This document shows, in pieces, positions 2,671 to 20,249 of a stretch of DNA of 20,863 nucleotides. Both the position numbers and the translations under genes were made by a program. The notes beneath the pieces are model-generated. The model saw only the letters and a program-made list of their open reading frames with translations, was not told where the DNA came from and made no database searches. This DNA is from Candidatus Aenigmatarchaeota archaeon (GTDB taxonomy: Archaea > Aenigmatarchaeota > Aenigmatarchaeia > Aenigmatarchaeales > JACQIB01): NCBI GenBank assembly GCA_046760225.1, contig JBHIDR010000013.1, positions 1-20,863 on the forward strand. The letters run 5' to 3'. Positions within the stretch are counted from its first letter, which is position 1, and each line of letters begins with the position of its first letter.

Positions 2671-3882
2671 ATGAAAATAGCTATTTTTTCTGATTGCCAC
2701 TGCGGCCATGCATTTGGCGAAGAAAGAGGAGAAGACTCTTTTCTTGGCCTGGAAGAGGCAATCAGGGCCAACATGGATGTTGACCTTATCCTCATAGCAG
2801 GCGATATGTTTGATTCAAGAGTGCCCAAGCAGGAGGTGTTTGCCAGGACAGCCAAGATACTCGGGCTCTCCCAGGGCCTGCCCGGCAGTACAAGACTTGT
2901 TGACCTAAAAGGAAAGGAAAAAACAGACATATCACCACTTGCCCTGCGCGGAATACCAATTGTTGCTATCCACGGCACGCATGAGAGAAGGAGCACGCAC
3001 ATGGTAAACCCTGTTCAGGCCCTGGAGCATGCAGGCCTCTTGATCCACCTGCATTGCTCTGCTGCTGTATTTAATATAGGCGACAAGACAGTGGCCATCC
3101 ATGGGATGTCAGGTGTTCCTGAGCGCTATGCAAAGGATGTGCTAAAGGAATGGAACCCGCAGCCAATCCCAGGTGCAGTCAACATATTCATGTTCCACCA
3201 GAGCATTGAGCCCTATATTTATTCGCCCCTTGACCCGCCGTCCCTGAAAATAGAGGACCTTCCGCCCGGATTTGACCTCTATGTGCTTGGCCACATACAC
3301 TGGAGGGACATAAAGGACCTTCACAGCGGCAAATTATTGCTGTGCGGGAGCACAACGCACACAAGCTTGCACAAAACAGAGTCAGACCAGCAAAAAGGAT
3401 ACTACATCTTCAATGGAAAGCATCTGGAATTTGTTCCCTTGAAGTCCCAGAGAAAAATCATCTGGAAGGAATTCTCCTACAATGCGCTATTAAAACAGGA
3501 AATGATGTCTTTTCTGTCAGAGCTCCCTGAATACAGCAAAAAACCCATATTCATTGCCAAGATAAGCGGCAGGCTCCCAACAGGTGCTGCGCCTCCTGTG
3601 TTCAATGATATTGAGAAGATGTTCAGCAACAAGGTGATATTCAACATAAGCAGAAGGATCGACTCAGAGGACTTTGCAGAAGACAAGGAACTCATCCAGG
3701 CACTGCGGGAGCAAAAACTTTCACCAGAGGAGCAGGGAATAAAAATCCTTGTTGAGAACCTCAATCAAACAAGGTGCGGAATAAAGGTAGAGGAGGTCTT
3801 CGAGCTGCTTGTGGACGGAAAAACAGACCTGCTGTTCAATCTCCTAACAGGAAAACAGAAAACACTGGGTGCTTCGCAATGA
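2671..3882 (+). CDS. mre11: DNA double-strand break repair nuclease Mre11
   Basis: Phosphoesterase motifs SDCHCG, AGDMFD, HGTHE, FHQ, LGHIH. Its stop overlaps the Rad50 start (ATGA). Confidence 0.92.
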   Translation: MKIAIFSDCHCGHAFGEERGEDSFLGLEEAIRANMDVDLILIAGDMFDSRVPKQEVFARTAKILGLSQGLPGSTRLVDLKGKEKTDISPLALRGIPIVAIHGTHERRSTHMVNPVQALEHAGLLIHLHCSAAVFNIGDKTVAIHGMSGVPERYAKDVLKEWNPQPIPGAVNIFMFHQSIEPYIYSPLDPPSLKIEDLPPGFDLYVLGHIHWRDIKDLHSGKLLLCGSTTHTSLHKTESDQQKGYYIFNGKHLEFVPLKSQRKIIWKEFSYNALLKQEMMSFLSELPEYSKKPIFIAKISGRLPTGAAPPVFNDIEKMFSNKVIFNISRRIDSEDFAEDKELIQALREQKLSPEEQGIKILVENLNQTRCGIKVEEVFELLVDGKTDLLFNLLTGKQKTLGASQ

Positions 3883-6251
3883 TCACCAAAATAAAATTAA
3901 GGAACTGGCGCTCACATGATAAAAGCGAGTTTAGTTTCTGCGAGGGCACGAACGCCCTTGTCGGGATAATGGGCTCTGGAAAGAGCTCTGTGATGGCAGC
4001 GCTCTGCTTTGCACTGTTCGGCACATTCCCTGAACTGCAGAGCAGGAAGATAAGGCTCGAGGACATAATGATGAAGAAGCCTGTACCAAAACAGGATGCA
4101 GAAGTCGAAGTGCACTTCTCAGTCGGCAATGACGAATACAGGGTCACAAGGAAAATATCCAAGACAAAGTCAACTTCTGCTGAGCTGAGGAAGAACAACA
4201 CTGTTGTGGAGTCCCCACAGCCCTCAAAGGTGACAGCTGAAATTGAAAACCTTCTAAAGATGAACTACGACCTTTTCACCCGGGCAATATACTCAGAGCA
4301 GAACGCCATTGACATGTTCCTGACCATCCCCAAGGGGCAGAGGATGAAAAAAATAGACGAGCTCCTTGCAATACACAAGTTCGAGAAGGCAAGAGCAACA
4401 ACAACTTCGCTTGTGAACAGGTGCAGGTTCGCTGCATCTGAAAAACAAAAGCTATTGGCAGGAATGCAGCAGGAGGCTGTGCTCAAGGAAATCGAATCAA
4501 TCAAGAAAGAGCTCCAGGGTCTTGCTGCTGAAAAGGAAAGTGCTGAAAAGAAGCTGGACAGCATGGTGAACAAGAAAAAATACATATCAAGGACACTGGA
4601 AGACCAGAAGAAGAACAGGGAAGAACTCATGAGAATAGAGAACGAGATAAGCACTTCCACTGCTCTTCTGAAGGAAATAAGAAAGGACATAGACGAGTTC
4701 CAGCTTGACGCAATAGAGTACGCTGAAAAAACAGAAAGTGAGATAATGCAAGTAATCAGAAGCATGGAAAGGGAAAAGGATGTTCTTTCACATGACCTTG
4801 AGGCAGAAAAGAAGAAGCATGAGGGGATGATAAAGATAATTGCACTCAAGGATGCAAAGGTCAAGCTTCTTAAGGAGGAAAGGATACCTGAGCTGAAAAA
4901 GCTTGTTTCTGAGAAAAAGAAGCTGGAGCAGATAATGGGGGGCAGGGGGATAGAGAAGCTCAGGAAGAAAATGGAGGAAGCAAAAAAGCTGACAGAAAAG
5001 GAGAACGAGATAATGCTTCAGCACATTGCAGCTATAGGAGAGATTGAGAAGAGCATAAAGGAGCTCTCTGCCTCAGGCGCTACATGCCCTGTATGCGACC
5101 AGAAGCTGACAGAAAAAAAGAAGAAGACCATAGTCAAGTCAAAGAAGGACAGAATAAGGAAGCTCAAGTCCGAGGCAACAAAGCTGAAGGACAGAATAGG
5201 GAAAATGAAAACAGGTATAGGAAAGCTCGAGAAGGAGTTAAGGAAGATAGAGTCCCTTGAGCAGAAGGCAAGCGACCTTGTTGATGCTGACAGCCAGCTA
5301 AGCTTTGCAAAGGCAGCGCAAAAAAAGCTGGAAGAGGAGGTAGCTTCCCAGGAAACAGAAGAAAAGATGCTTAACAAGACAATCTCTATCTCCCAAAAGA
5401 AATTTGACGAGCTAAAGGAAAAAATGGACAAGATAAAGCAACACCTGTCTGTGCGCCAGCAGATACAGTCAAAAACAAAGGCGTCCAAGGAGCTTCAGCA
5501 GAAGATATCTGACCTCATGTTCAAGAAGCAGCAGATGCCTGCTGTGTCAGAGCTTTCAATTGCCCAGCTCGAATCAGAATTTAAGTCTGTAATAGCTGCT
5601 GAAAGTACTCTCAGGGCAAGAGTAGAGAACATCTCCTCCCTCAGCAGCGAGAAGAGTAAAAGGATGGAGGAACTCGAGTCAAAGAACAAGATGGTTGATG
5701 GATACAGAGCAGAAATAAGGAAACTAGATGTACTTGCAGCCCAGCTCCGCCTGCTCGAATCGTCACTAACAGCAACACAGGAGCAACTCAGAAAGAACTT
5801 TGTGTCTGCTGTCAACCAGGCCATGCAGATAATATGGGAGAGCACATACCCCTATAAGGACTTTTACAGCTGCAGGCTTGGTATTACAGAAGGTGACTAT
5901 ATGCTGCAGCTGCAGGACAGCACAGGATGGGTGCCTGTTGATGGAATAGCATCAGGTGGCGAACGAAGCATAGCCTGTTTAACCCTTCGAATAGCGTTCT
6001 CCCTTGTCTTGGCGCCCCAGCTCAGCTGGCTTGTGCTGGATGAGCCCACCCACAACCTTGATAGCCGTGCAGTAGAGGACCTGGGAAATGTGCTCAGAGA
6101 GAAAATAACTGATCTTGTGGAGCAAGTGTTCCTCATAACCCATGATCCCCTGCTTGAGAGCGCTGTATCTGGCTATCTTTACAGATTAGAAAGACAAAAG
6201 GAAAAGGATGCTGCAACCAGCGTTATAATGGTTGCAGGCCCTGAGGACTAA
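3879..6251 (+). CDS. rad50: DNA double-strand break repair ATPase Rad50 (790 aa from ATG 3879)
   Basis: Walker A GIMGSGKSS, Q-loop YSEQ, coiled coils around Zn-hook CPVC, signature SGGE, Walker B LVLDEPT, ITHD. Likely start MITKIKLRNW at 3879. Confidence 0.95.
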   Translation: MITKIKLRNWRSHDKSEFSFCEGTNALVGIMGSGKSSVMAALCFALFGTFPELQSRKIRLEDIMMKKPVPKQDAEVEVHFSVGNDEYRVTRKISKTKSTSAELRKNNTVVESPQPSKVTAEIENLLKMNYDLFTRAIYSEQNAIDMFLTIPKGQRMKKIDELLAIHKFEKARATTTSLVNRCRFAASEKQKLLAGMQQEAVLKEIESIKKELQGLAAEKESAEKKLDSMVNKKKYISRTLEDQKKNREELMRIENEISTSTALLKEIRKDIDEFQLDAIEYAEKTESEIMQVIRSMEREKDVLSHDLEAEKKKHEGMIKIIALKDAKVKLLKEERIPELKKLVSEKKKLEQIMGGRGIEKLRKKMEEAKKLTEKENEIMLQHIAAIGEIEKSIKELSASGATCPVCDQKLTEKKKKTIVKSKKDRIRKLKSEATKLKDRIGKMKTGIGKLEKELRKIESLEQKASDLVDADSQLSFAKAAQKKLEEEVASQETEEKMLNKTISISQKKFDELKEKMDKIKQHLSVRQQIQSKTKASKELQQKISDLMFKKQQMPAVSELSIAQLESEFKSVIAAESTLRARVENISSLSSEKSKRMEELESKNKMVDGYRAEIRKLDVLAAQLRLLESSLTATQEQLRKNFVSAVNQAMQIIWESTYPYKDFYSCRLGITEGDYMLQLQDSTGWVPVDGIASGGERSIACLTLRIAFSLVLAPQLSWLVLDEPTHNLDSRAVEDLGNVLREKITDLVEQVFLITHDPLLESAVSGYLYRLERQKEKDAATSVIMVAGPED

Positions 6252-11154: not shown

Positions 11155-12090
11155 CTATCTCCTTCTTGCCTTATACCTGTAGCCCTTCTTCTTTGTTTTC
11201 AAGAAGTATGCTGCACCTGCTATTATTAAAATAACCACTACTGCAATCAGGACTGTGTAATCAGCAGCTTCTGTGGGTGCTTCTCCACCAGTTGGTTCTC
11301 CTTCATCTCCTGCTGGCGCACCTTCTCCTTCAGGAACACCCTCATCTGTTGGTGTTTCGCCCGGTTGTGCTTCAGCCTCTTCTGTCTCATTTGTTGGTGG
11401 TGCTCCTGTTGGTGCTGCTTCTCCTCCCTCTGCACCATCTCCTCCATCACCAGCACAGTCAGTGCAGCTTACTGAGAGCGATGCTGACTGGGAGCCTGCA
11501 TTCGAGCTTGTTATGCTTATTGATGCAGTGGTTGTAGCGCTTATGGTATAGCTGCATGTAAGGCTCTTGCTCTCGCCGCCGCCCACTCCGCCTGCTATTG
11601 TCCCATAGTCAAGAGAAGACGGGCTGCAGCCTGAAAGGGTTGCAGTCACGTCCTTTGCATTTGTCTCGCCAGTGTTCTGTATGTTTATGTTCACTGTCTG
11701 TGATGAGCCAGAAGTGCCAGAGATTGAATCAGCTGATACTGAGAGCGAGGGCGGAAGTATTACGTCAAAGCTGCTTGATGTGCCGGAATCAGGGGTACTG
11801 GATGTTGCGCTTATTGTCTGTGCGCTGAGCTTCTGGTCAGCTGTCACTGTCCATGAAAGCGGGCTGCTCCCTGTTTTCGTAAGCGAGTCAGATGTGGAGA
11901 AGCCTGTGGGAAGGCTCAGGCTGACCTGTGCTGTGCCTGACCATCCTGAAACAGAAACAGTGAAGGACCTTCCTTTCATAACTGTCCCTGGGTCTGCTCC
12001 TGCCTGGGATATGCCCACTGTGAGTGCTGCATGGCCAGGAAGGGAAAAAAGTAAAAATAAGACAATGGAGAACAAACTCATCCTCTTCAT
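11155..12090 (-). CDS. Secreted Ig/CARDB-like protein with acidic linker and C-terminal membrane anchor
   Basis: Signal peptide. Ser/Thr-rich beta domains with INIQNTGETNAKDV. E/G/A/P-rich linker, TM helix and basic tail KTKKKGYRYKARRR. Confidence 0.85.
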   Translation of the reverse strand: MKRMSLFSIVLFLLFSLPGHAALTVGISQAGADPGTVMKGRSFTVSVSGWSGTAQVSLSLPTGFSTSDSLTKTGSSPLSWTVTADQKLSAQTISATSSTPDSGTSSSFDVILPPSLSVSADSISGTSGSSQTVNINIQNTGETNAKDVTATLSGCSPSSLDYGTIAGGVGGGESKSLTCSYTISATTTASISITSSNAGSQSASLSVSCTDCAGDGGDGAEGGEAAPTGAPPTNETEEAEAQPGETPTDEGVPEGEGAPAGDEGEPTGGEAPTEAADYTVLIAVVVILIIAGAAYFLKTKKKGYRYKARRR

Positions 12091-15000
12091 TAAGGTCCAC
12101 CTCCACCGCCTTCAGCCTGTGCCCAAAGGTCTCCTATCTGGAACCAGTTGTCAACTGTCTCCGAGGTGCTGCCATATGTCACGTTCGTATTCAGCATGTA
12201 ATCTCCATCAGGCCATGCTCCAACAGGAGCCAGCTCTATCAGTGCATACCCCCCATCATCTGTGACGTTCTGTACGTAATTGACCGTATAGTCAGTGCTC
12301 TCTGTCAGTTTGGATGCACCGAATGCCCCGAACCTGTAGACAGTCAGCACTTCTGCTGTTGCACCTTGGATTGCTGACTGGTCAAAGTCATAAATCCTTA
12401 TTGCAAATGTGATGTTGTCCGTATTGTTTATCGTCCACCTGTCCTTGAAGAGCAGCATGTCTGTTTTGTTGTACCTCTTTATGTTCCATTCTGGCCTTAG
12501 CTCATATGGATAGCTCTCATTTATTTCCGCGAACCTCACGTTTCCATAATAGATTCCTGTCGGAGCATTGCCCCACTGCTCGCTTATTGAAGCCTGCTCA
12601 TTGCCGTAATAATCCGTGTAGGCTGCGCCTGAACCAGAGCTGTTCTGCCACCAGGGCTCTGTAATCATGGTATCATCATCTGTCAGTATGTTTGTCAGGT
12701 CCTGCTGCCCGTCCTCCCTGTCGTCAAACCCTATCATGTAGAACGTGCTGCCCAGCGACTTGTCCATGTCAAGGTCAAGTCCAACACTCGCCTCTGATAT
12801 TGCACCCGACCAGTAGGCTGGTGAATCATCAGCTGCCCTTACGTCAGCAGCAGGTACTGGCGGGGACACGCCAGTGCTGTTTATTATTACCATTCCGTCC
12901 CATGAGCCTGGTCCCACCCTTCCAAGGTAGAGGTCTGTGGCAAAGCTTCCGCCAATTGGCGTGCCTGAAACCCCAGTAAAGTTGCCGTCTGTACTGAACC
13001 ATGCGCTCTTTGCGCACTCATCAGTGTTCCATCTCGTGCACATCGGGTATTCAACTGATGTGTTGTTCGAAAGCAGCGCCATGTACTCTGCTCCGCTCAC
13101 ATTGTATGCTCCTGTCAGTGCCATTGCCCTCCATTTCGGTGCAGGGTTGCCTGACCAGTCCGAAATCCTTAGCGGTTCAATCACAGAAGAGTTCACGCCA
13201 TCAAAACCTACAACCACGCTGGCACTCGTTGCACTTGCATTGAGCACAAACAGCATGTATTTCTTGCCCTGATAGGTTATGTTTATCGGGTCGTACATAT
13301 CATACAGTGCTGTGCTTGATGTGTCATTGAACGTGCAGTTGGCTGTATTGACCCATAGCTTTGATGCATTTGCAGCAGTAACAAAATAGTAGTATCCCGG
13401 CAGGCTGCTCACAAATGTCCTGTTAACAGGGTCTATTCCAGCATCATCAGGCGGATATGCAACACTCCCAGGGCAATTGCTTATGGCCAGAGGGGATACT
13501 CCGGGGCATTCCAGGCTTGTGCTGCTGTTCTCTACAACCCTGTCACAGCCGTCAAAGTCAAGCACGCCCTCAATGTACATGTCTATGCTGGTGTCATTCA
13601 CAGTATACAGGTCCACCGGATCGCCGTAGTTTTCAGGGTCATACCTGTGGACATAAACCGGCTTGAAGTTTCTTATGTATCCTCCCATTCCCTGTTCAGA
13701 CCTGCTCAGGAATAACCTCACCCTTGTGAAAGGCCATTTCCATTCATCCAGATTTTCTGTTACGCCGTTTCTCTTCCCTATGATCTCGAACCTATACTCG
13801 CCTGCACCAAGAGCATAATCAGAAAGGTTTACCTTTATCTCGCCCTTTCCTGTTATCTCTTCTGTGACCCCGCTTCCAAGTGGCTTTATTTCCTCACCTG
13901 CTGTGGTCCTTACTCTTGCGTTCTTTACTGTGACATTCGCTGTTGTGTCAGCTCCTGCAGGTGTTGTAACAACAACAGGTATTGATATGTTGTCTCCTAG
14001 CTTGTATTCACCTATATCAGACCATTCACCTACTCCTTTGGAATATACCTTTATGTCCTCTGCCCTCGGATCGATATTAAGCAGTGTTATTGTGTCATTA
14101 TCCCCGAATGTTCTTGTGGATATATTGTCATTGATGCTTATCGGGTTTGTGAAATTGCTGTCACCAGAATAAAAGAACATGTCATAATATCCTGAGCTCG
14201 CATTGTCTGTCAGTGCAAAGTATACTGTATCATTGGTCATCCCGTTACCATTTATGTCAAGTCCTTTGTTGCCTGACATTGTCCATGCTCCCATCTGCTC
14301 TTCCCTCAGCATTCCTATCTTCACTTTCTTGCTTTGAGTATAGTTCGTATTTATGTAGGACCCTGTTTCTGCAAGCACGTTCTCCCCGCTAAGCTTCATT
14401 ACATTGTTGCTCAATGACTTTACCTTCCATTCCCCTCCATACGGGTCTGGTATTACCTGGTCTATGGCATAAGCAGTTGCACCGCTCATGTCAGTTCCTC
14501 CAGACATCCAGAGGTGCGTTGTGTTATGATAAGCATAGGCTGGCTTTGTTGTATTGAATCCTGGGAACTGTTCTTCCAGTCCCTCACTCCTTGCAAGGTT
14601 GACATATCCATGATAATAGGTTGTATCGGTTTGAGGAGGTATAAGAACATAGCTGTTCTGAGCACAGCCACCTGTGCCACAAACCCAGCTTTCACCGCAT
14701 ATCTTTCCGTCTGTATGCCTTAACTGAAGGTCATTGCTATCAATATTGGTTATGTTCCATGTCTTTCCTGCCAAGCTGAAAGTAGAATAGTTTGTCATTG
14801 CTGTTTCTGCAGAAAGATTTGAGCTGTTCCCTATCCATGCATGCGTATCATTCCTGACAACATACGCCTCGGTCCCGTTCGGGAAATAACTGCAGTCCCC
14901 CCACATCCATTGGCCAACAGTGTCTATGCAGTACTGTGCAGACCTGTAGCTGTCGCTAATATCTTTCTGTAAAAACTCTATGTCCACGCCATCACATACA

Positions 15001-18000
15001 TGGGTTGTGTTGGACGAGCACGTGTCAGGCACAGCATTTATTTGGTTGTCGCACCTGTCCTGGTTGTAGACGTCTCCTGACTCAAAATCAGGGCTGTCTG
15101 TTGTCCATACCCATCCCTCGCTTAAAACAGGGACCCCAAGCACATAGTTCTTGACAAAGAAGTCTATTCCCTCTGTCTTCTCCACCCCACTGGTGTCATT
15201 GATGTTGAACTCTGCAAAATAGAATCCTGATGTCAGGCTTACATTGAATGTCACATTGCATACATTGCCTGTACAGCTTGTTGAATAGTTGGCCTTCTCA
15301 GGCTTTCCGAGCTTCTCATTGAAGATCCTGTAAAGCCCTGTGCCTTGCGTACTGAGGTTGTGCGGGCTGTTATTGAAATCAGTCGCAGTGAACGTGACTG
15401 TTATGTTCTCGTACGGCTCGAAAACAACAGGCCACTGGTCGCTTCCCCTGTACTTTGTATCAACCTTGTAGCTTGATGTCTCAAACCAGAAGCTTCCTAT
15501 ATCAGATTTTCCGCCCACAGTGAACTTGACATTTGCCTGGTGCTCTCCTTCCCTTTCCAGGCCTGTCAGATTGAAGACATACATCTCTTCTGTACAGCCA
15601 GGCCCATAGCATCCTTCCATACTGACATTCTGGAGGCTTACGCTGGATGAATATGAAACAGGCGAAGGTGGTCCCCTCATGCTGTAGTACAGCACGTTTT
15701 CTACCACAGGAGCGCTGTCAGGAGTCAGTATGTCCCAGGTTCCTGGGTTTCTTGCCACAGCAGAGAACAGCACATCACCGCTCTTTTCAAAGCTTCTTGT
15801 TTCCCAGCTCATGGTATAGTTCTGGCCGTCATACTGCACCCCAGCCGTATCAATAAAGAAGTTCCTTATCTCGAACCAGCCCCATCCCATATAGGTGATG
15901 TTTGAGTTGTCAGGGTCCCTGAGTATTATGTCAACACCATACCAGCCTGTTGGGATGTCAAGTGTGGGTTGCGCTGCGCTCGGCCCTGTCAGCGTTATGG
16001 TTGCGCCTGATGTTGAATTTGTCACAGCTCCCTTTGACACATTGTAGTCTGATGTTGGTATTTCCTTCTCAATCTGGAAGTTTATCAGCTTGTCCACCTC
16101 AGCTATCAGACCTGTGCAGCCAGTGCAGCTCATGCTCCCGCCAACACCGCCCACAAACTTTCCTTTCTCAATGTCAACAACATTTACCTTCAGTGTCACG
16201 TTCTTCCCTGAATTAACAAAACAGAAGTTCTGGCCGCAGTCAACTTCTGCCCAGATGAAATACTTCTTTAGCATGAAGAACACATCGCCTGTTCCTTCCA
16301 TCTCTGTTCCTCCCACATCAGCCTTGAACCTGAATTTTGCCAGGAAGAAGCCCTCGCTGTTTGGTGATGTGAAGGAAATCGTGCCATTGGCAACGCTCTC
16401 ATTTGCAGCTGCCCTGTATGCAGGAGTGAACACATCCTGTCTTGGCTCTGGGAACTCCTTCCACATCTCAATTAGTTTTACGCTTGTTATGTTTTCTCCT
16501 GGTATTTCTGTGTCCGTCAGAAGGTCCCTTACATTCAGCTTTATCCTCACAGTGCTGTTCGGTGCAAAGAAGCCGAACTCCTCCCCATGGAAGTCCACTG
16601 TCTTTCCCCGGGCAAACAGCCTTTGCACACCAAAGGTAGAGCCTGCTTCCTTTGTCTCGAGCGGATGCGCAACCTTGACAACTGCATTGTATATCCCTGT
16701 CTTGTTGGGAGCAACGAATATTATCATGCACTGCCTCTGCACTTCTTTTGGTGGTCCCTCACCTCCTGGAGGCTGCATATCAGAAGGGAGGTAGTCAATA
16801 GCATCAGTAAGGTTCTTCACTAAGTACGATATGCTGCCCAGATAGGAGACCCCGTTCTCGTCTGTGAGCTTTTCCAAGGTCACATAGTCATCACATTCAT
16901 CGTCTGCTGTTGAGGAATTGTCGATGTCAACCATGCCTGTTGGCCCTTCAGGACCGAATCCCCCTCCTGTAACATTCTGCAGCATCACCATCAGTGTCAT
17001 GTTCTTTCCTGGTGCGAATGCTGTTACAAATGCTCCTGGCCCCTCGGCCTCATCAACATACTTCGTGTTTATGGGCTGTATTGTAAGCGTTAATGTCTCG
17101 ATTGCAAACCCGAGGTTTATTGTCTGCTGGTTGCTGCTGCTGTCTGTCCCGGTTATCTGTACCCCGTATTCGCCTGTTGGGTATCCTGTAGAGTCCCATT
17201 CACCTGAATAAGAGCCTGTTGAATCAACAGACATGCTCACAGATGTTGAGCTCCCATTTGGCAGGATTATCGATGTGGATATGGAGGAAAGATTGAACAG
17301 CGCTCCGGCAAGTGTTTTCGAAAGTGCTTCGAATTTTATTTTCGAGTTTGGTGCAAAGCTGTAAGTGGGGGAGCCTGTTACATCGGTTACCTTGCCAAAG
17401 AGCCTGAAGGCCTCCACGCTGAATATCTCTACTGCAGTGTCATTGGCATTTATTGTATAGATACCTGCTGTGCTCGGTGTGCTGAAGCTTGAATTGAAGT
17501 AACCCCAGCTGTTCGTGGTACCAACCAGGCTGTTGACAACAGTGCCGGCCTTGTTCCTTATTGTGATGTTGACAGCTACTGCCTGGTCCTGCTTCAGGTG
17601 GTGCGTGCTGTTTTCCACGAACATCATGAAGTAGGCTGTTTCTCCTGTGCCATAAACAGAATCAGGCACAGGAATGGCAAGGAACACCTTGTTTCCTGTA
17701 CTGAACTCTATCTTCTTTATTAAATAGCTTTCGAAAAGCTTTCCTTGTTTCAGCTGCCTTTCCACATTGTCCCCGTCCCCACTATCCTCTGTATCATTGT
17801 AGAGCCGGAAATCCATGTCATCATCTACATAGAGGGTGTCATAGGTCTCGTTTAAGTTCTCATCAACAAGAACAAAGCTCCAGTTCCTTCCTGAGAAATT
17901 GTAAAACCCATAATGCAGTGTTCCTGACTTGGAGAGGTCCCTCAGCTCAGTGAAGTTCCCTCCCATTGCATTGTCTGTTGTAATAAGTGTGCTCGTGTTT

Positions 18001-18389
18001 ATCGGTATTATGCTCGTGTTGTTTATCAGGTTCGCCTCATGGGTCAGCAGCTCTGAAACAACCTTGTAATGTATTAGCACATAGTCCGAGCCGTTGTACA
18101 CCCTTGCAGTATAGTCATCAGCTGCACCTGCAGAAAAAGAGAAAACATAGCTCCCACCAGAAACGCTCGTGTTTGTTGTGCTGAGCACAACATCAGAGGT
18201 GGAGTTTGTTACATTGAGCGTTAGCAGAACACTCGCAGCACTTGCATTTCCTGTTATTCTTACTGTGTCACCTGTCTCGTATATTATCTTGTCCGCACTG
18301 CCGCTTATTGTATAGGCACCTGCTGCTGAAGTCAGCACAAGCGAAAAAAATACAGTTATGATTATAAATTTTCCTTTATTCAATCCCAC
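12090..18389 (-). CDS. Giant secreted multi-domain surface glycoprotein (~2099 aa)
   Basis: Signal peptide, many NxS/T sequons, repeated Ig/MG2-like domain starts, Cys pairs, no C-terminal TM. Start is GTG 18389 or TTG 18383 (after GGGGTG). Confidence 0.9.
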   Translation of the reverse strand: MGLNKGKFIIITVFFSLVLTSAAGAYTISGSADKIIYETGDTVRITGNASAASVLLTLNVTNSTSDVVLSTTNTSVSGGSYVFSFSAGAADDYTARVYNGSDYVLIHYKVVSELLTHEANLINNTSIIPINTSTLITTDNAMGGNFTELRDLSKSGTLHYGFYNFSGRNWSFVLVDENLNETYDTLYVDDDMDFRLYNDTEDSGDGDNVERQLKQGKLFESYLIKKIEFSTGNKVFLAIPVPDSVYGTGETAYFMMFVENSTHHLKQDQAVAVNITIRNKAGTVVNSLVGTTNSWGYFNSSFSTPSTAGIYTINANDTAVEIFSVEAFRLFGKVTDVTGSPTYSFAPNSKIKFEALSKTLAGALFNLSSISTSIILPNGSSTSVSMSVDSTGSYSGEWDSTGYPTGEYGVQITGTDSSSNQQTINLGFAIETLTLTIQPINTKYVDEAEGPGAFVTAFAPGKNMTLMVMLQNVTGGGFGPEGPTGMVDIDNSSTADDECDDYVTLEKLTDENGVSYLGSISYLVKNLTDAIDYLPSDMQPPGGEGPPKEVQRQCMIIFVAPNKTGIYNAVVKVAHPLETKEAGSTFGVQRLFARGKTVDFHGEEFGFFAPNSTVRIKLNVRDLLTDTEIPGENITSVKLIEMWKEFPEPRQDVFTPAYRAAANESVANGTISFTSPNSEGFFLAKFRFKADVGGTEMEGTGDVFFMLKKYFIWAEVDCGQNFCFVNSGKNVTLKVNVVDIEKGKFVGGVGGSMSCTGCTGLIAEVDKLINFQIEKEIPTSDYNVSKGAVTNSTSGATITLTGPSAAQPTLDIPTGWYGVDIILRDPDNSNITYMGWGWFEIRNFFIDTAGVQYDGQNYTMSWETRSFEKSGDVLFSAVARNPGTWDILTPDSAPVVENVLYYSMRGPPSPVSYSSSVSLQNVSMEGCYGPGCTEEMYVFNLTGLEREGEHQANVKFTVGGKSDIGSFWFETSSYKVDTKYRGSDQWPVVFEPYENITVTFTATDFNNSPHNLSTQGTGLYRIFNEKLGKPEKANYSTSCTGNVCNVTFNVSLTSGFYFAEFNINDTSGVEKTEGIDFFVKNYVLGVPVLSEGWVWTTDSPDFESGDVYNQDRCDNQINAVPDTCSSNTTHVCDGVDIEFLQKDISDSYRSAQYCIDTVGQWMWGDCSYFPNGTEAYVVRNDTHAWIGNSSNLSAETAMTNYSTFSLAGKTWNITNIDSNDLQLRHTDGKICGESWVCGTGGCAQNSYVLIPPQTDTTYYHGYVNLARSEGLEEQFPGFNTTKPAYAYHNTTHLWMSGGTDMSGATAYAIDQVIPDPYGGEWKVKSLSNNVMKLSGENVLAETGSYINTNYTQSKKVKIGMLREEQMGAWTMSGNKGLDINGNGMTNDTVYFALTDNASSGYYDMFFYSGDSNFTNPISINDNISTRTFGDNDTITLLNIDPRAEDIKVYSKGVGEWSDIGEYKLGDNISIPVVVTTPAGADTTANVTVKNARVRTTAGEEIKPLGSGVTEEITGKGEIKVNLSDYALGAGEYRFEIIGKRNGVTENLDEWKWPFTRVRLFLSRSEQGMGGYIRNFKPVYVHRYDPENYGDPVDLYTVNDTSIDMYIEGVLDFDGCDRVVENSSTSLECPGVSPLAISNCPGSVAYPPDDAGIDPVNRTFVSSLPGYYYFVTAANASKLWVNTANCTFNDTSSTALYDMYDPINITYQGKKYMLFVLNASATSASVVVGFDGVNSSVIEPLRISDWSGNPAPKWRAMALTGAYNVSGAEYMALLSNNTSVEYPMCTRWNTDECAKSAWFSTDGNFTGVSGTPIGGSFATDLYLGRVGPGSWDGMVIINSTGVSPPVPAADVRAADDSPAYWSGAISEASVGLDLDMDKSLGSTFYMIGFDDREDGQQDLTNILTDDDTMITEPWWQNSSGSGAAYTDYYGNEQASISEQWGNAPTGIYYGNVRFAEINESYPYELRPEWNIKRYNKTDMLLFKDRWTINNTDNITFAIRIYDFDQSAIQGATAEVLTVYRFGAFGASKLTESTDYTVNYVQNVTDDGGYALIELAPVGAWPDGDYMLNTNVTYGSTSETVDNWFQIGDLWAQAEGGGGGP

Positions 18390-18501
18390 ACCCCATTTTA
18401 GTTTACTTAAGCCTCCTTATAAAGGTTTTGCTGTATTTAATTGTAATATTTATTGTTACAACTCCAATATATATTTAACGTTCTGCCTCAAAACGGGCCT
18501 A

Positions 18502-18509
18502 TTTATAAA
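18502..18509 (+). promoter_or_regulatory. TATA box of the SRP RNA gene
   Basis: TTTATAAA centred about 26 nt upstream of the predicted 5' end (G18532). Confidence 0.75.
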
Positions 18510-18701
18510 GATTGATATTCAAGATTTCATTGGCAGGGAGCTAGACTGGGGGGCTCGTCCTACCCTGTAAGCGCAAATGGGCGTTATGGTGCGGTCGAAG
18601 CTTGAGGGCGGTGCAGGAAGTCTGTAAGGTCCTGCTAGCCAACTGAGAAGCGCCGTCCTGCAGAGTTGGTGTTATAGCGAACTGGGTCAGACTGGGAACA
18701 G

Positions 18702-19338
18702 AGGAGGATAAGTGATGGAAATGAACGAAGCATATTTGGTAGGATACACTATTGGAGACGGCTGTCTGTATAGCTGTAGCCATGTGTTTAGTTTGGACCC
18801 TAGAAAGAGTCTAATGGACTACGAAATTACGTGGGGCGATAAAGATTTGGAACAGTTGGGGCTAATTGAGAGAATAGTAAAATCTTTGTTTCCTCATGTA
18901 TACCTAAAAACAAAGATTAGAAAAAAATCAAAGGGCAAAATCCTCAGGTGTCGTAGAAAAAAAGTTTTTTTACACCTTAAAGAGCTGCTCTCTAAAGATA
19001 TGAAAAGTGAGACAAAGGAAAACATAGCAGCCTTTATAAGTGGGTTTTGTGATGCCGAAGGTGATATCGGCAAAACCAATAATGGAACATACAAAGGCAA
19101 GATATACTACAAGCCCCGTATCCAAGTAACTCAAAAAGATAAGGCTATCTTAGAACAAATAAAGGAGTTACTTGAAAAAAAATTCAATATAAAATCTAGA
19201 ATTCATAAAAAATGGGATCAAGACGCATATATCTTGCAGATAAGTGGATGTAAACAAGTATCTATTTTCAAAAAGGAAATAAATTTTAGAAATCCTACCA
19301 AATGTGCAAAGTTAGAAAGTATACTTTCCTCCGTTCAA
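18702..19338 (+). mobile_element. 637-nt bulge-helix-bulge archaeal intron in SRP RNA helix 8, carrying a homing endonuclease gene
   Basis: Central 4-bp helix GAAC (18696-99)/GTTC (19333-36). 3-nt bulges AGA (18700-02) and AAA (19337-39). Intron-side helix GGAGGA(T)AAGT (18703-13)/ACTTTCCTCC (19323-32). Cutting after the second nt of each bulge restores the SRP54-binding motif. Confidence 0.88.
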
Positions 19339-19356
19339 AGCAGCCCTAAGTTGTAG
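18715..19356 (+). CDS. Double-motif LAGLIDADG homing endonuclease (intron-encoded)
   Basis: Motif 1 AYLVGYTIGDG, motif 2 AAFISGFCDAEG, then RIQVTQKD..ILEQIKELL..F.I.S.I. SD GGAGG at 18703-07, start ATG 18715 (or GTG 18712). Visibly AT-richer than the flanking genes. Confidence 0.9.
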   Translation: MEMNEAYLVGYTIGDGCLYSCSHVFSLDPRKSLMDYEITWGDKDLEQLGLIERIVKSLFPHVYLKTKIRKKSKGKILRCRRKKVFLHLKELLSKDMKSETKENIAAFISGFCDAEGDIGKTNNGTYKGKIYYKPRIQVTQKDKAILEQIKELLEKKFNIKSRIHKKWDQDAYILQISGCKQVSIFKKEINFRNPTKCAKLESILSSVQSSPKL

Positions 19357-19446
19357 CATCAGCGTTTGCAGGGTCGCGGCGTGGAGAAGGCTGACAGGGT
19401 AAGCTTTATGGGTTTTCTGTATCAACCAAAGGCATGCTTCCTGCCA

Positions 19447-19455
19447 TTTTTATTT
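19447..19455 (+). terminator. T-tract terminator of SRP RNA, overlapping the TATA-like TTTAAA of the next gene
   Basis: TTTTTATTT directly after the 3' strand of helix 1. Confidence 0.6.
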
Positions 19456-19475
19456 AAAGGGATGCAATGATTTTT

Positions 19476-20249
19476 ATGGCCAGGAAGAGAAGGAAAACAA
19501 GCAATCTCCAGCTTGTCCTAGTTGTACTGGTTGTGTTCCTTGCAGGCGTTCTCACAGCCCTGCAGTTCATGGAGCCAAAAGAAATTATTCAGCCAATACA
19601 GGTAATAAAGAACCTCACTGTCCCGCCCCAGATTAGTGAAGGTTCTCGGGTGGAGATGCTCGTTCCAGCAGTGGACACGGATGGCAATGGCGTCACAACC
19701 AGGCTAATGGTAGAGGCAAAGCCAGGCACAGGAAAGGTGCTTACCAATATCGACATACTGCTCTTCTGGGTGGACACCCAGCAATCGATACAGGTTGCAA
19801 GGGACGTTGCAAAGAACATAACAGGCATAGACACTGATGCGCTTGACATCACATATGCAATAGAGGCAGACAATGTGAGCCTTGTTGGCGGTCCTTCAGC
19901 AGGCGCTGCCCTCACAGTTGCCACTATTGCTGCGCTCCAGGCAAAGCAGCCCGACCCAAATGCAGCAATAACAGGCACAATAAACCCGGACGGAACAATA
20001 GGAAAGGTCGGTTCTGTGTATGAAAAGGCAAGGGCAGTGAAAAGGGACAATGTCATGACATTGCTCGTGCCCACCGGTGAAGGCGTTGAAATCACAGTAA
20101 GGCCAATTGAGAAATGCATAGAAGAGCCCGAGTTTACTTTCTGCGAGACCTACTACAAGCAGAAGAAGGTCAATATAGGGGAAGCACTTGGCATGGAAGT
20201 CATAGAGGTTGGCAATGTCTCAGAAGCACTGCCCTATTTCTTTGAATAA
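19476..20249 (+). CDS. Membrane-anchored Lon-type (S16) serine protease domain protein without ATPase
   Basis: N-terminal TM, GGPSAGAALTVA (catalytic Ser), ITGTINPDGTIGKVG..YEK (catalytic Lys). Start is 19476 or 19467. Confidence 0.9.
   Translation: MARKRRKTSNLQLVLVVLVVFLAGVLTALQFMEPKEIIQPIQVIKNLTVPPQISEGSRVEMLVPAVDTDGNGVTTRLMVEAKPGTGKVLTNIDILLFWVDTQQSIQVARDVAKNITGIDTDALDITYAIEADNVSLVGGPSAGAALTVATIAALQAKQPDPNAAITGTINPDGTIGKVGSVYEKARAVKRDNVMTLLVPTGEGVEITVRPIEKCIEEPEFTFCETYYKQKKVNIGEALGMEVIEVGNVSEALPYFFE

Follow-up and report, generated by a model that had tools for sequence, protein, structure and literature searches.

The window analysed here comprises positions 1 to 20,863 of contig JBHIDR010000013.1 from a Candidatus Aenigmatarchaeota archaeon (assembly GCA_046760225.1; 20,863 nucleotides, nt). 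It very probably carries a DPANN signal recognition particle (SRP, 7S) RNA gene that is split in its SRP54-binding helix 8 by a 637-nt, protein-spliced, endonuclease-bearing intron of the archaeal type. The gene lies on the plus strand, with SRP RNA exon 1 at positions 18534-18701, the intron at 18702-19338 and exon 2 at 19339-19443. Its anatomy, the junction motif together with the covariation of that motif in a second genome, and an intact gene for a LAGLIDADG homing endonuclease are shown by the sequence analyses. An earlier description of this locus (the original prediction) had proposed the same arrangement. We confirmed the observation and found its interpretation supported, with two corrections: the open reading frame (ORF) of the endonuclease extends 18 nt into exon 2, and the SRP RNA has no helix 6.

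The two flanks as halves of one SRP RNA

When the flanks were scored separately in the truncated-hit mode of Infernal, both matched the Rfam Archaea_SRP model (RF01857): exon 1 aligned with positions 1-212 as a hit truncated at its 3' end (56.4 bits, E 1.6e-12), and exon 2 with positions 213-317 as a hit truncated at its 5' end (24.4 bits, E 2.7e-4). The two matches abut exactly between model positions 212 and 213, i.e., between the GGAA hairpin and the AGCA of helix 8; since the flank cut points were taken from the junctions given in the original prediction, this fit serves as a check on them and not as a blind finding. Because AG is repeated at both junctions, registers 0 to +2 yield an identical spliced product. 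A permuted SRP gene of the Thermoproteus type was rejected as a candidate, since model positions 1-212 lie upstream of 213-317 on the same strand.

Exon 1 contains the 5' strand of the terminal helix, the Alu domain, the 5' strand of helix 5, and helix 8 through its GGAA tetraloop hairpin, while exon 2 supplies the AGCA side of the symmetric loop of helix 8, the 3' strands of helices 8 and 5, and the terminal helix. According to the Rfam alignments, the UGUNR motif of the Alu domain (helices 2-4) is present as UGUAA, both here and in the second genome described below. Helix 8 with its GNRA tetraloop (the GGAA hairpin) and its symmetric loop is present, by model match and by fold, once positions 18702-19338 are removed. 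On direct reading, a TATA-like box, TTTATAAA, was found at 18502-18509 (plus strand), about 28 nt before position 18534, the first base of the SRP RNA; this position presumably suits an archaeal promoter. A T-run, TTTTTATTT, at 19447-19455 (plus strand) is likely an archaeal terminator. The UGUAA of the Alu domain, the long helix 5, the TATA-like box and the T-run had all been named in the original prediction, and each was recovered by direct reading, Rfam alignment or folding.

Joining exon 1 (168 nt) to exon 2 (108 nt) gives a 276-nt RNA whose minimum free energy (MFE) fold is a rod of -122.0 kcal/mol that comprises the terminal helix, the Alu domain, the long helix 5 and the helix 8 tip (z = -4.42; none of 200 dinucleotide shuffles reached the observed energy). 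The long helix 5 forms between the 5' and 3' halves, and joining the exons brings a gain of -38.6 kcal/mol, compared with -9.7 +/- 3.5 kcal/mol when exon 2 is shuffled (0/200 reached the observed value). The corresponding gain in the second genome is -25.8 kcal/mol, again reached by none of 200 shuffles. The proposal that the flanks of the LAGLIDADG ORF form one archaeal SRP RNA is thus borne out by the abutting model matches as well as by the joining gain.

With such extensive pairing between the exons, a nicked particle could also hold together. In that case EndA would excise the intron and the exons, held by the long helix 5, would remain a two-piece SRP RNA resembling the fragmented rRNAs. 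We regard this as very unlikely, since the nick would fall within the SRP54-binding loop, and since archaeal EndA cleavage is coupled to ligation by RtcB, including in the case of the Thermoproteus SRP RNA, as set out in the relevant part of PMC4731332.

Covariance-model annotation does miss this SRP RNA, in keeping with the remark in the original prediction that such introns might account for SRP RNAs overlooked by annotation. The uncut window gave no Rfam match at the gathering score over its 20,863 nt, and a relaxed scan of the whole window returned nothing at E<=0.05 beyond a single Alu-domain match to RF01857 (35.1 bits). If the gene is indeed split by an intron, SRP genes of this kind would escape standard annotation.

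Intron boundaries and splicing motif

The intron is bounded by the Rfam abutment and by the cuts predicted from a bulge-helix-bulge (BHB) motif, and its G+C content is 0.35 versus 0.56 for the exons. In the unconstrained MFE fold of the 913-nt precursor, the 5' strand of the motif occupies positions 18692-18708 and the 3' strand positions 19327-19343 (both plus strand). The 5' strand consists of the outer helix CUG(G) (18692-95), the central helix GAAC (18696-99), the bulge AGA (18700-02) and the stem GGAGGA (18703-08). On the 3' strand follow the stem UCCUCC (19327-32), the central helix GUUC (19333-36), AAA (19337-39) and the outer helix (G)CAG (19340-43). GAAC pairs with GUUC, and GGAGGA with UCCUCC followed by five more pairs, with the AGA left unpaired, so that the 5' side has the canonical helix-bulge-helix form. 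Just 3 base pairs (bp) make up the outer exon helix, which is invariant.

EndA cleaves after the second bulge nucleotide. Applied to the window, this rule predicts cuts at 18701/18702 and 19338/19339, which is the boundary between model positions 212 and 213, and a ligated junction in which the end of exon 1, ...GGGAACAG, is joined to the start of exon 2, AGCAGCC.... The model boundary and the predicted cuts therefore coincide at the split of helix 8, after 18701 and before 19339, that had been put forward originally.

The same intron in a second genome

We scanned genome contigs with a profile of the endonuclease, and from 68 pattern matches one locus (L001) was confirmed. It lies on a contig of a Nanoarchaeota archaeon metagenome-assembled genome (MAG). 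In this one confirmed case the same intron is found at the same site. The endonuclease of the Nanoarchaeota locus is 50% identical to that of the window, and the layout is the same: exon 1 (1-166) begins where the contig does, the intron measures 639 nt, and exon 2 starts at 806. Exon 1 matched RF01857 over model positions 1-212 (44.6 bits, E 1.6e-9). The unconstrained MFE fold of this precursor has the 5' strand of the motif in the same layout at 156-180, with an identical GAAC/GUUC helix at 161-164/800-803 and the AGA bulge. The intron stem differs in sequence and measures 13 bp, against 6 bp plus a further 5 in the window. With the stems placed in register, both partners have changed in the Nanoarchaeota locus at 4 of the 6 window pairs, and pairing is preserved at each of these.

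The spliced Nanoarchaeota RNA folds into the same rod (MFE z = -3.85; 0/200 shuffles reach the observed value). The two spliced RNAs agree in 136 of the 276 columns of their alignment. Among the 57 consensus pairs, 26 are unchanged, 12 carry one-sided changes, 19 carry compensatory changes and none is broken. Because 19 of the 57 pairs are compensatory and none is broken, the interrupted SRP gene is, judged from this comparison, under selection for RNA structure in both lineages, which argues against a dead copy and against misassembly.

A misassembly would mean a chimeric contig in which an SRP gene and an unrelated endonuclease gene were brought together. The window is probably metagenome-derived, with MAG proteins as the closest relatives of its products, and a chimera is conceivable for that reason. 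It is nevertheless almost vanishingly improbable: the same architecture is found in the independent public MAG contig of the Nanoarchaeota archaeon, a 99%-identical endonuclease occurs on 3 contigs, and the flanks are complementary halves of one RNA.

Weighing an interrupted, functional gene

Several observations weigh against a functional SRP gene with a spliced intron. To begin with the junction, its 3' bulge is non-canonical. In the MFE fold, AA 19337-38 lies opposite GG 18694-95 as a 2x2 loop, and the 3' side can alternatively be drawn as an AAA bulge closed by a G.G mismatch and followed by three pairs. Because of this 3' side, the junction motif as modelled is a relaxed BHB and not the strict 3-4-3 form. 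The BHB of the original prediction holds for the GAAC/GUUC helix, the AGA bulge and the GGAGGA/UCCUCC stem, all seen in the MFE fold, but not for the AAA as a clean 3-nt bulge. The 3-4-3 form is defined, and relaxed forms are reported to be cut by the (alpha-beta)2 and epsilon2 endonucleases of Nanoarchaeum, Crenarchaeota and ARMAN, in the pertinent sections of PMC2761253 and PMC4033280. A relaxed 3' half would here need a host EndA with broad specificity.

The half motif is also common. Defined as 4 bp, a 3-nt bulge and 6 bp, all Watson-Crick and with the strands 300-1500 nt apart, it occurs 44 times on the plus strand and 45 times on the minus strand, with a mean of 24.4 in 50 plus-strand shuffles. 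As a stand-alone statistic (44 observed versus 24.4 expected) it was discarded as evidence. The half motif carries weight because one of the 44 plus-strand occurrences sits at the very junction that is defined by the SRP model, and because it is conserved in the Nanoarchaeota locus.

Other reservations concern the RNA itself. Both halves score below the RF01857 gathering score of 96.5 bits, a comparison in which the pairs between the halves go uncounted, and the exon 2 match is weak. Exon 2 of the Nanoarchaeota locus, taken alone, gave no Rfam match at E<=1. At window position 18691, on the 5' side of the symmetric loop of helix 8, the sequence reads CAGA, while the Rfam consensus and the Nanoarchaeota locus have CAGG. 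This change, already pointed out in the original prediction and visible in the Rfam alignment, falls in the loop that contacts SRP54.

The RNA is furthermore atypical for an archaeon in that helix 6, the SRP19-binding hairpin, is absent. In the window (18660-18690) and in the Nanoarchaeota locus (125-150) alike, 1 nt stands in place of 40 model positions, and the folds have no three-way junction. A 2010 review reports, in the passages that treat the subject, that SRP19 coexists with helix 6 and is found in all archaeal subgroups then known (PMC2905702). In the DPANN lineages with the intron, the S domain may resemble that of bacteria, and SRP19 itself may be lacking. Lastly, the DNA evidence comes from two loci only, and splicing, ligation and endonuclease activity are predicted.

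With 20.9 kb of the genome visible, a second, intact SRP gene may be located elsewhere. The copy in the window could then be one that was inactivated by a homing-endonuclease element, with the cell using the intact gene. Within the window no other SRP match was found, which leaves the rest of the genome unaddressed, and both the CAGA in place of CAGG in the SRP54 loop and the failure of the Nanoarchaeota exon 2 to match Rfam on its own would fit a dead copy. Such inactivation is very improbable in view of what has been conserved. The RNA structure is kept across two genomes whose endonucleases are just 50% identical, with compensatory changes in a third of the consensus pairs (19/57) and no broken pair. 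The junction motif is conserved as well, with 4 of 6 stem pairs compensated, the promoter-like box and the T-run are retained, and about 16 members of the endonuclease family have C-terminal tails that read as SRP exon 2 (see below). We therefore prefer a functional SRP gene interrupted by an intron.

The intron-encoded endonuclease

The LAGLIDADG homing endonuclease ORF was located at 18715-19356 on the plus strand (213 amino acids from ATG 18715; Pfam LAGLIDADG_3, E 2.4e-15). The ORF was listed as 18712-19356, with 214 amino acids from a GTG; the homologues begin at ATG 18715, giving 213 amino acids. A GGAGGA element is present 6 nt upstream of this ATG in the window, and no such element is found in the Nanoarchaeota locus. 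Of the coding sequence, 208 codons are intronic and the last 5 codons plus the TAG stop (18 nt) lie in exon 2. The number of intronic codons is 208 in both loci, with the 3' splice site on a codon boundary and the ORF continuing into exon 2.

Window positions 19327-19356, which hold the last codons of the endonuclease, also supply the 3' side of the intron stem, the central helix and the bulge, and reach 18 nt into exon 2. Because of this double use, the segment is under both coding and RNA-structure constraint. As a separate observation, when the introns are read as circles, the reading of the 637-nt window intron stops after 231 codons, and the 639-nt intron of the Nanoarchaeota locus (167-805), a multiple of three, has no in-frame stop and forms an endless frame.

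The ORF covers 624 of the 637 intron nt, so that 13 nt remain outside. This bears on two further possibilities, namely that the 637 nt are retained as an expansion in the mature RNA or that they constitute a self-splicing group I or group II intron. Group I introns often harbour LAGLIDADG genes, and the presence of one here would agree with a self-splicing element. The ORF leaves no room for a ribozyme core, and no Rfam family, group I and group II introns included, matched at E<=10 in positions 18400-19560 besides the SRP Alu match. A group I or group II intron was rejected on these two grounds. A retained insertion would part the two strands of the SRP54-binding loop. Both possibilities are thus extremely unlikely, and the insert is better described, as it had been originally, as a homing-endonuclease intron, with a 213-amino-acid, I-DmoI-like LAGLIDADG protein and no ribozyme.

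The protein contains two LAGLIDADG motifs, at residues 7-17 and 106-118, in one chain, each with an acidic residue at its end. These residues, D16 and E116, are of the kind that has a catalytic role in such enzymes; they are invariant in 12 of 12 sequences and align in the profile search to GDG and AEGD of I-DmoI. When the family profile was compared with PDB sequences, matches were obtained with PI-PfuI (8.8e-7), with I-DmoI across both motifs (7.7e-6), with 2dch, a 'putative homing endonuclease' (4.2e-4), and with 3e54, an 'rRNA intron-encoded endonuclease' (1.9e-3). The AlphaFold2 model (pLDDT 88.0, pTM 0.81) shows the alpha-beta-beta-alpha-beta-beta-alpha order with twofold arrangement, and the top Foldseek match was I-DmoI (E 3.7e-11; TM 0.65/0.77), followed by I-Tsp061I (E 3.1e-10). 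The protein is apparently an intact, monomeric endonuclease of the archaeal-intron type.

Family members and the insertion site

A search of 5.8 billion proteins gave 11 relatives at 50-99% identity, and a profile search of the same set gave 15 proteins at E<=1e-5. Among 1.84 billion cluster representatives, 321 proteins were found at E<=1e-3 and only 5 at E<=1e-30. On these counts the endonuclease family is a small, tight clade.

The position of the ORF end in exon 2 makes the C-terminal tails of the family informative about the insertion site. The sequence GUU-YAN-AGC runs from the last bases of the central helix through the bulge into the first bases of exon 2, and it predicts a YAN codon followed by AGC. 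We compared the tails of 17 close members (the window protein and P0001-P0016). A conserved Val is reached in 16 of the 17, with P0006 ending earlier. In 11 tails the residue after this Val is Q (6), Y (4) or H (1), and the next one is Ser in 11 of 11; in 5 the Val is the last residue before the stop. Because Val-Q/Y/H-Ser tails fit GUU-YAN-AGC, the protein tails suggest that nearly the whole endonuclease clade is located at the SRP helix 8 site.

Proposed maturation and mobility

Transcription would start from one promoter and run from the TATA-like box to the T-run, giving a precursor of about 913 nt. The I-DmoI-like endonuclease, whose stop codon is located in exon 2, would for that reason be translated from this precursor. 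Folding and the covariation with the Nanoarchaeota locus indicate that the exon-intron junctions would form the relaxed BHB. By analogy with archaeal tRNA and rRNA introns, EndA would then cut after 18701 and after 19338, and RtcB would ligate the exons to a 276-nt SRP RNA and circularise the intron. At the DNA level, the endonuclease would cut intron-less SRP genes at this highly conserved site, leading to intron homing. We consider it reasonably likely that we are dealing with a family of mobile, endonuclease-bearing BHB introns that home specifically into SRP RNA helix 8 in several DPANN lineages.

SRP RNA is universal, and an endonuclease-bearing intron at its most conserved site would mean that mobile introns of archaea have a wider range of hosts than rRNA. 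If the proposal is correct, biogenesis of the protein-targeting particle would rely on tRNA-splicing enzymes, thereby linking protein targeting to the tRNA-splicing machinery, and the pre-SRP RNA would also serve as the messenger for the endonuclease. The S domain without helix 6 raises the question whether these archaea dispense with SRP19. The gene would further represent the collinear 'simple BHB intron' stage that Plagens et al. (PMC4731332) proposed as the ancestor of permuted SRP RNA genes, so that the intermediate they postulated for Thermoproteus would have a present-day representative.

Relation to known systems

Full-text searches of open-licence PMC papers and bioRxiv preprints turned up no report of an SRP RNA gene with an intron. 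In agreement with this check, the original prediction knew of no described mobile homing-endonuclease intron in SRP RNA. In the available text of the SRP review PMC2905702 the word 'intron' occurs 0 times.

The closest parallels are the LAGLIDADG-bearing introns of archaeal rRNA, such as those encoding I-DmoI (Desulfurococcus 23S rRNA), I-Tsp061I and I-Vdi141I. These are likewise protein-spliced introns in an essential structural RNA, each nearly filled by a gene for a monomeric two-motif LAGLIDADG protein of about 200 amino acids, and the best fold matches and sequence matches of the window protein are among these enzymes. The present case differs in its host gene, which encodes SRP RNA, in an ORF that ends in the downstream exon, and in a splicing motif with a relaxed 3' half. 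It also occurs in DPANN archaea, whereas the known rRNA-intron LAGLIDADG examples come from Crenarchaeota. EndA-type splicing outside tRNA and rRNA is also known from the BHB introns of cbf5 in archaeal mRNA; these are short, contain no endonuclease gene and interrupt a protein-coding host gene.

The permuted SRP RNA of Thermoproteus (Plagens et al. 2015, PMC4731332), which is processed through a BHB and circularised, resembles the present case in that RtcB and the tRNA-splicing endonuclease are needed for its maturation. The Thermoproteus gene is permuted and has neither a cis intron nor an endonuclease gene, whereas the gene in the window is collinear and has a cis intron with a homing endonuclease in helix 8. 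A further likeness exists with the non-canonical tRNA introns (relaxed BHB and bulge-helix-loop, BHL) and split tRNAs of Nanoarchaeum, Crenarchaeota and ARMAN, which, in the sections of PMC2761253 and PMC4033280 devoted to them, combine one canonical bulge-helix unit with a looser second bulge. Unlike in those systems, the substrate here is not a tRNA, and the intron, at 637 nt, is protein-coding.

Host and neighbouring genes

The other genes in the window are archaeal and include those for class-I prolyl-tRNA synthetase (ProRS), Mre11, Rad50, Bud32, ribosomal proteins S15 and S3Ae, and TYW1. The best named relatives of the ProRS are from Candidatus Aenigmatarchaeota (74% identity) and Nanoarchaeota (62%). 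Because of these archaeal neighbours and the ProRS matches, the host is, by gene content, a DPANN archaeon. No EndA or RtcB gene was found among the 14 window ORFs covered by the annotation, nor was a tRNA found in the window.

Directly upstream of the SRP gene, on the opposite strand, lies an ORF of 2099 amino acids (12090-18389, minus strand). Its product has a hydrophobic stretch at the N-terminus, contains a great many N-x-S/T sequons and resembles the giant surface proteins that are reported from DPANN archaea in the corresponding part of PMC10266531. On the other side, an ORF of 260 amino acids (19467-20249, plus strand) begins 24 nt downstream of the SRP RNA. It has an N-terminal hydrophobic segment, and its sole domain is a Lon C-terminal (S16) protease (Pfam Lon_C, E 4.9e-9). 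Farther away, the Mre11-like ORF (2671-3882, plus strand) and the Rad50-like ORF (3774-6251, plus strand) overlap as listed by about 109 nt, and the actual start of Rad50 is probably further downstream. Both ORFs are divergent, since their NCBIfam scores are far under the curated cut-offs.

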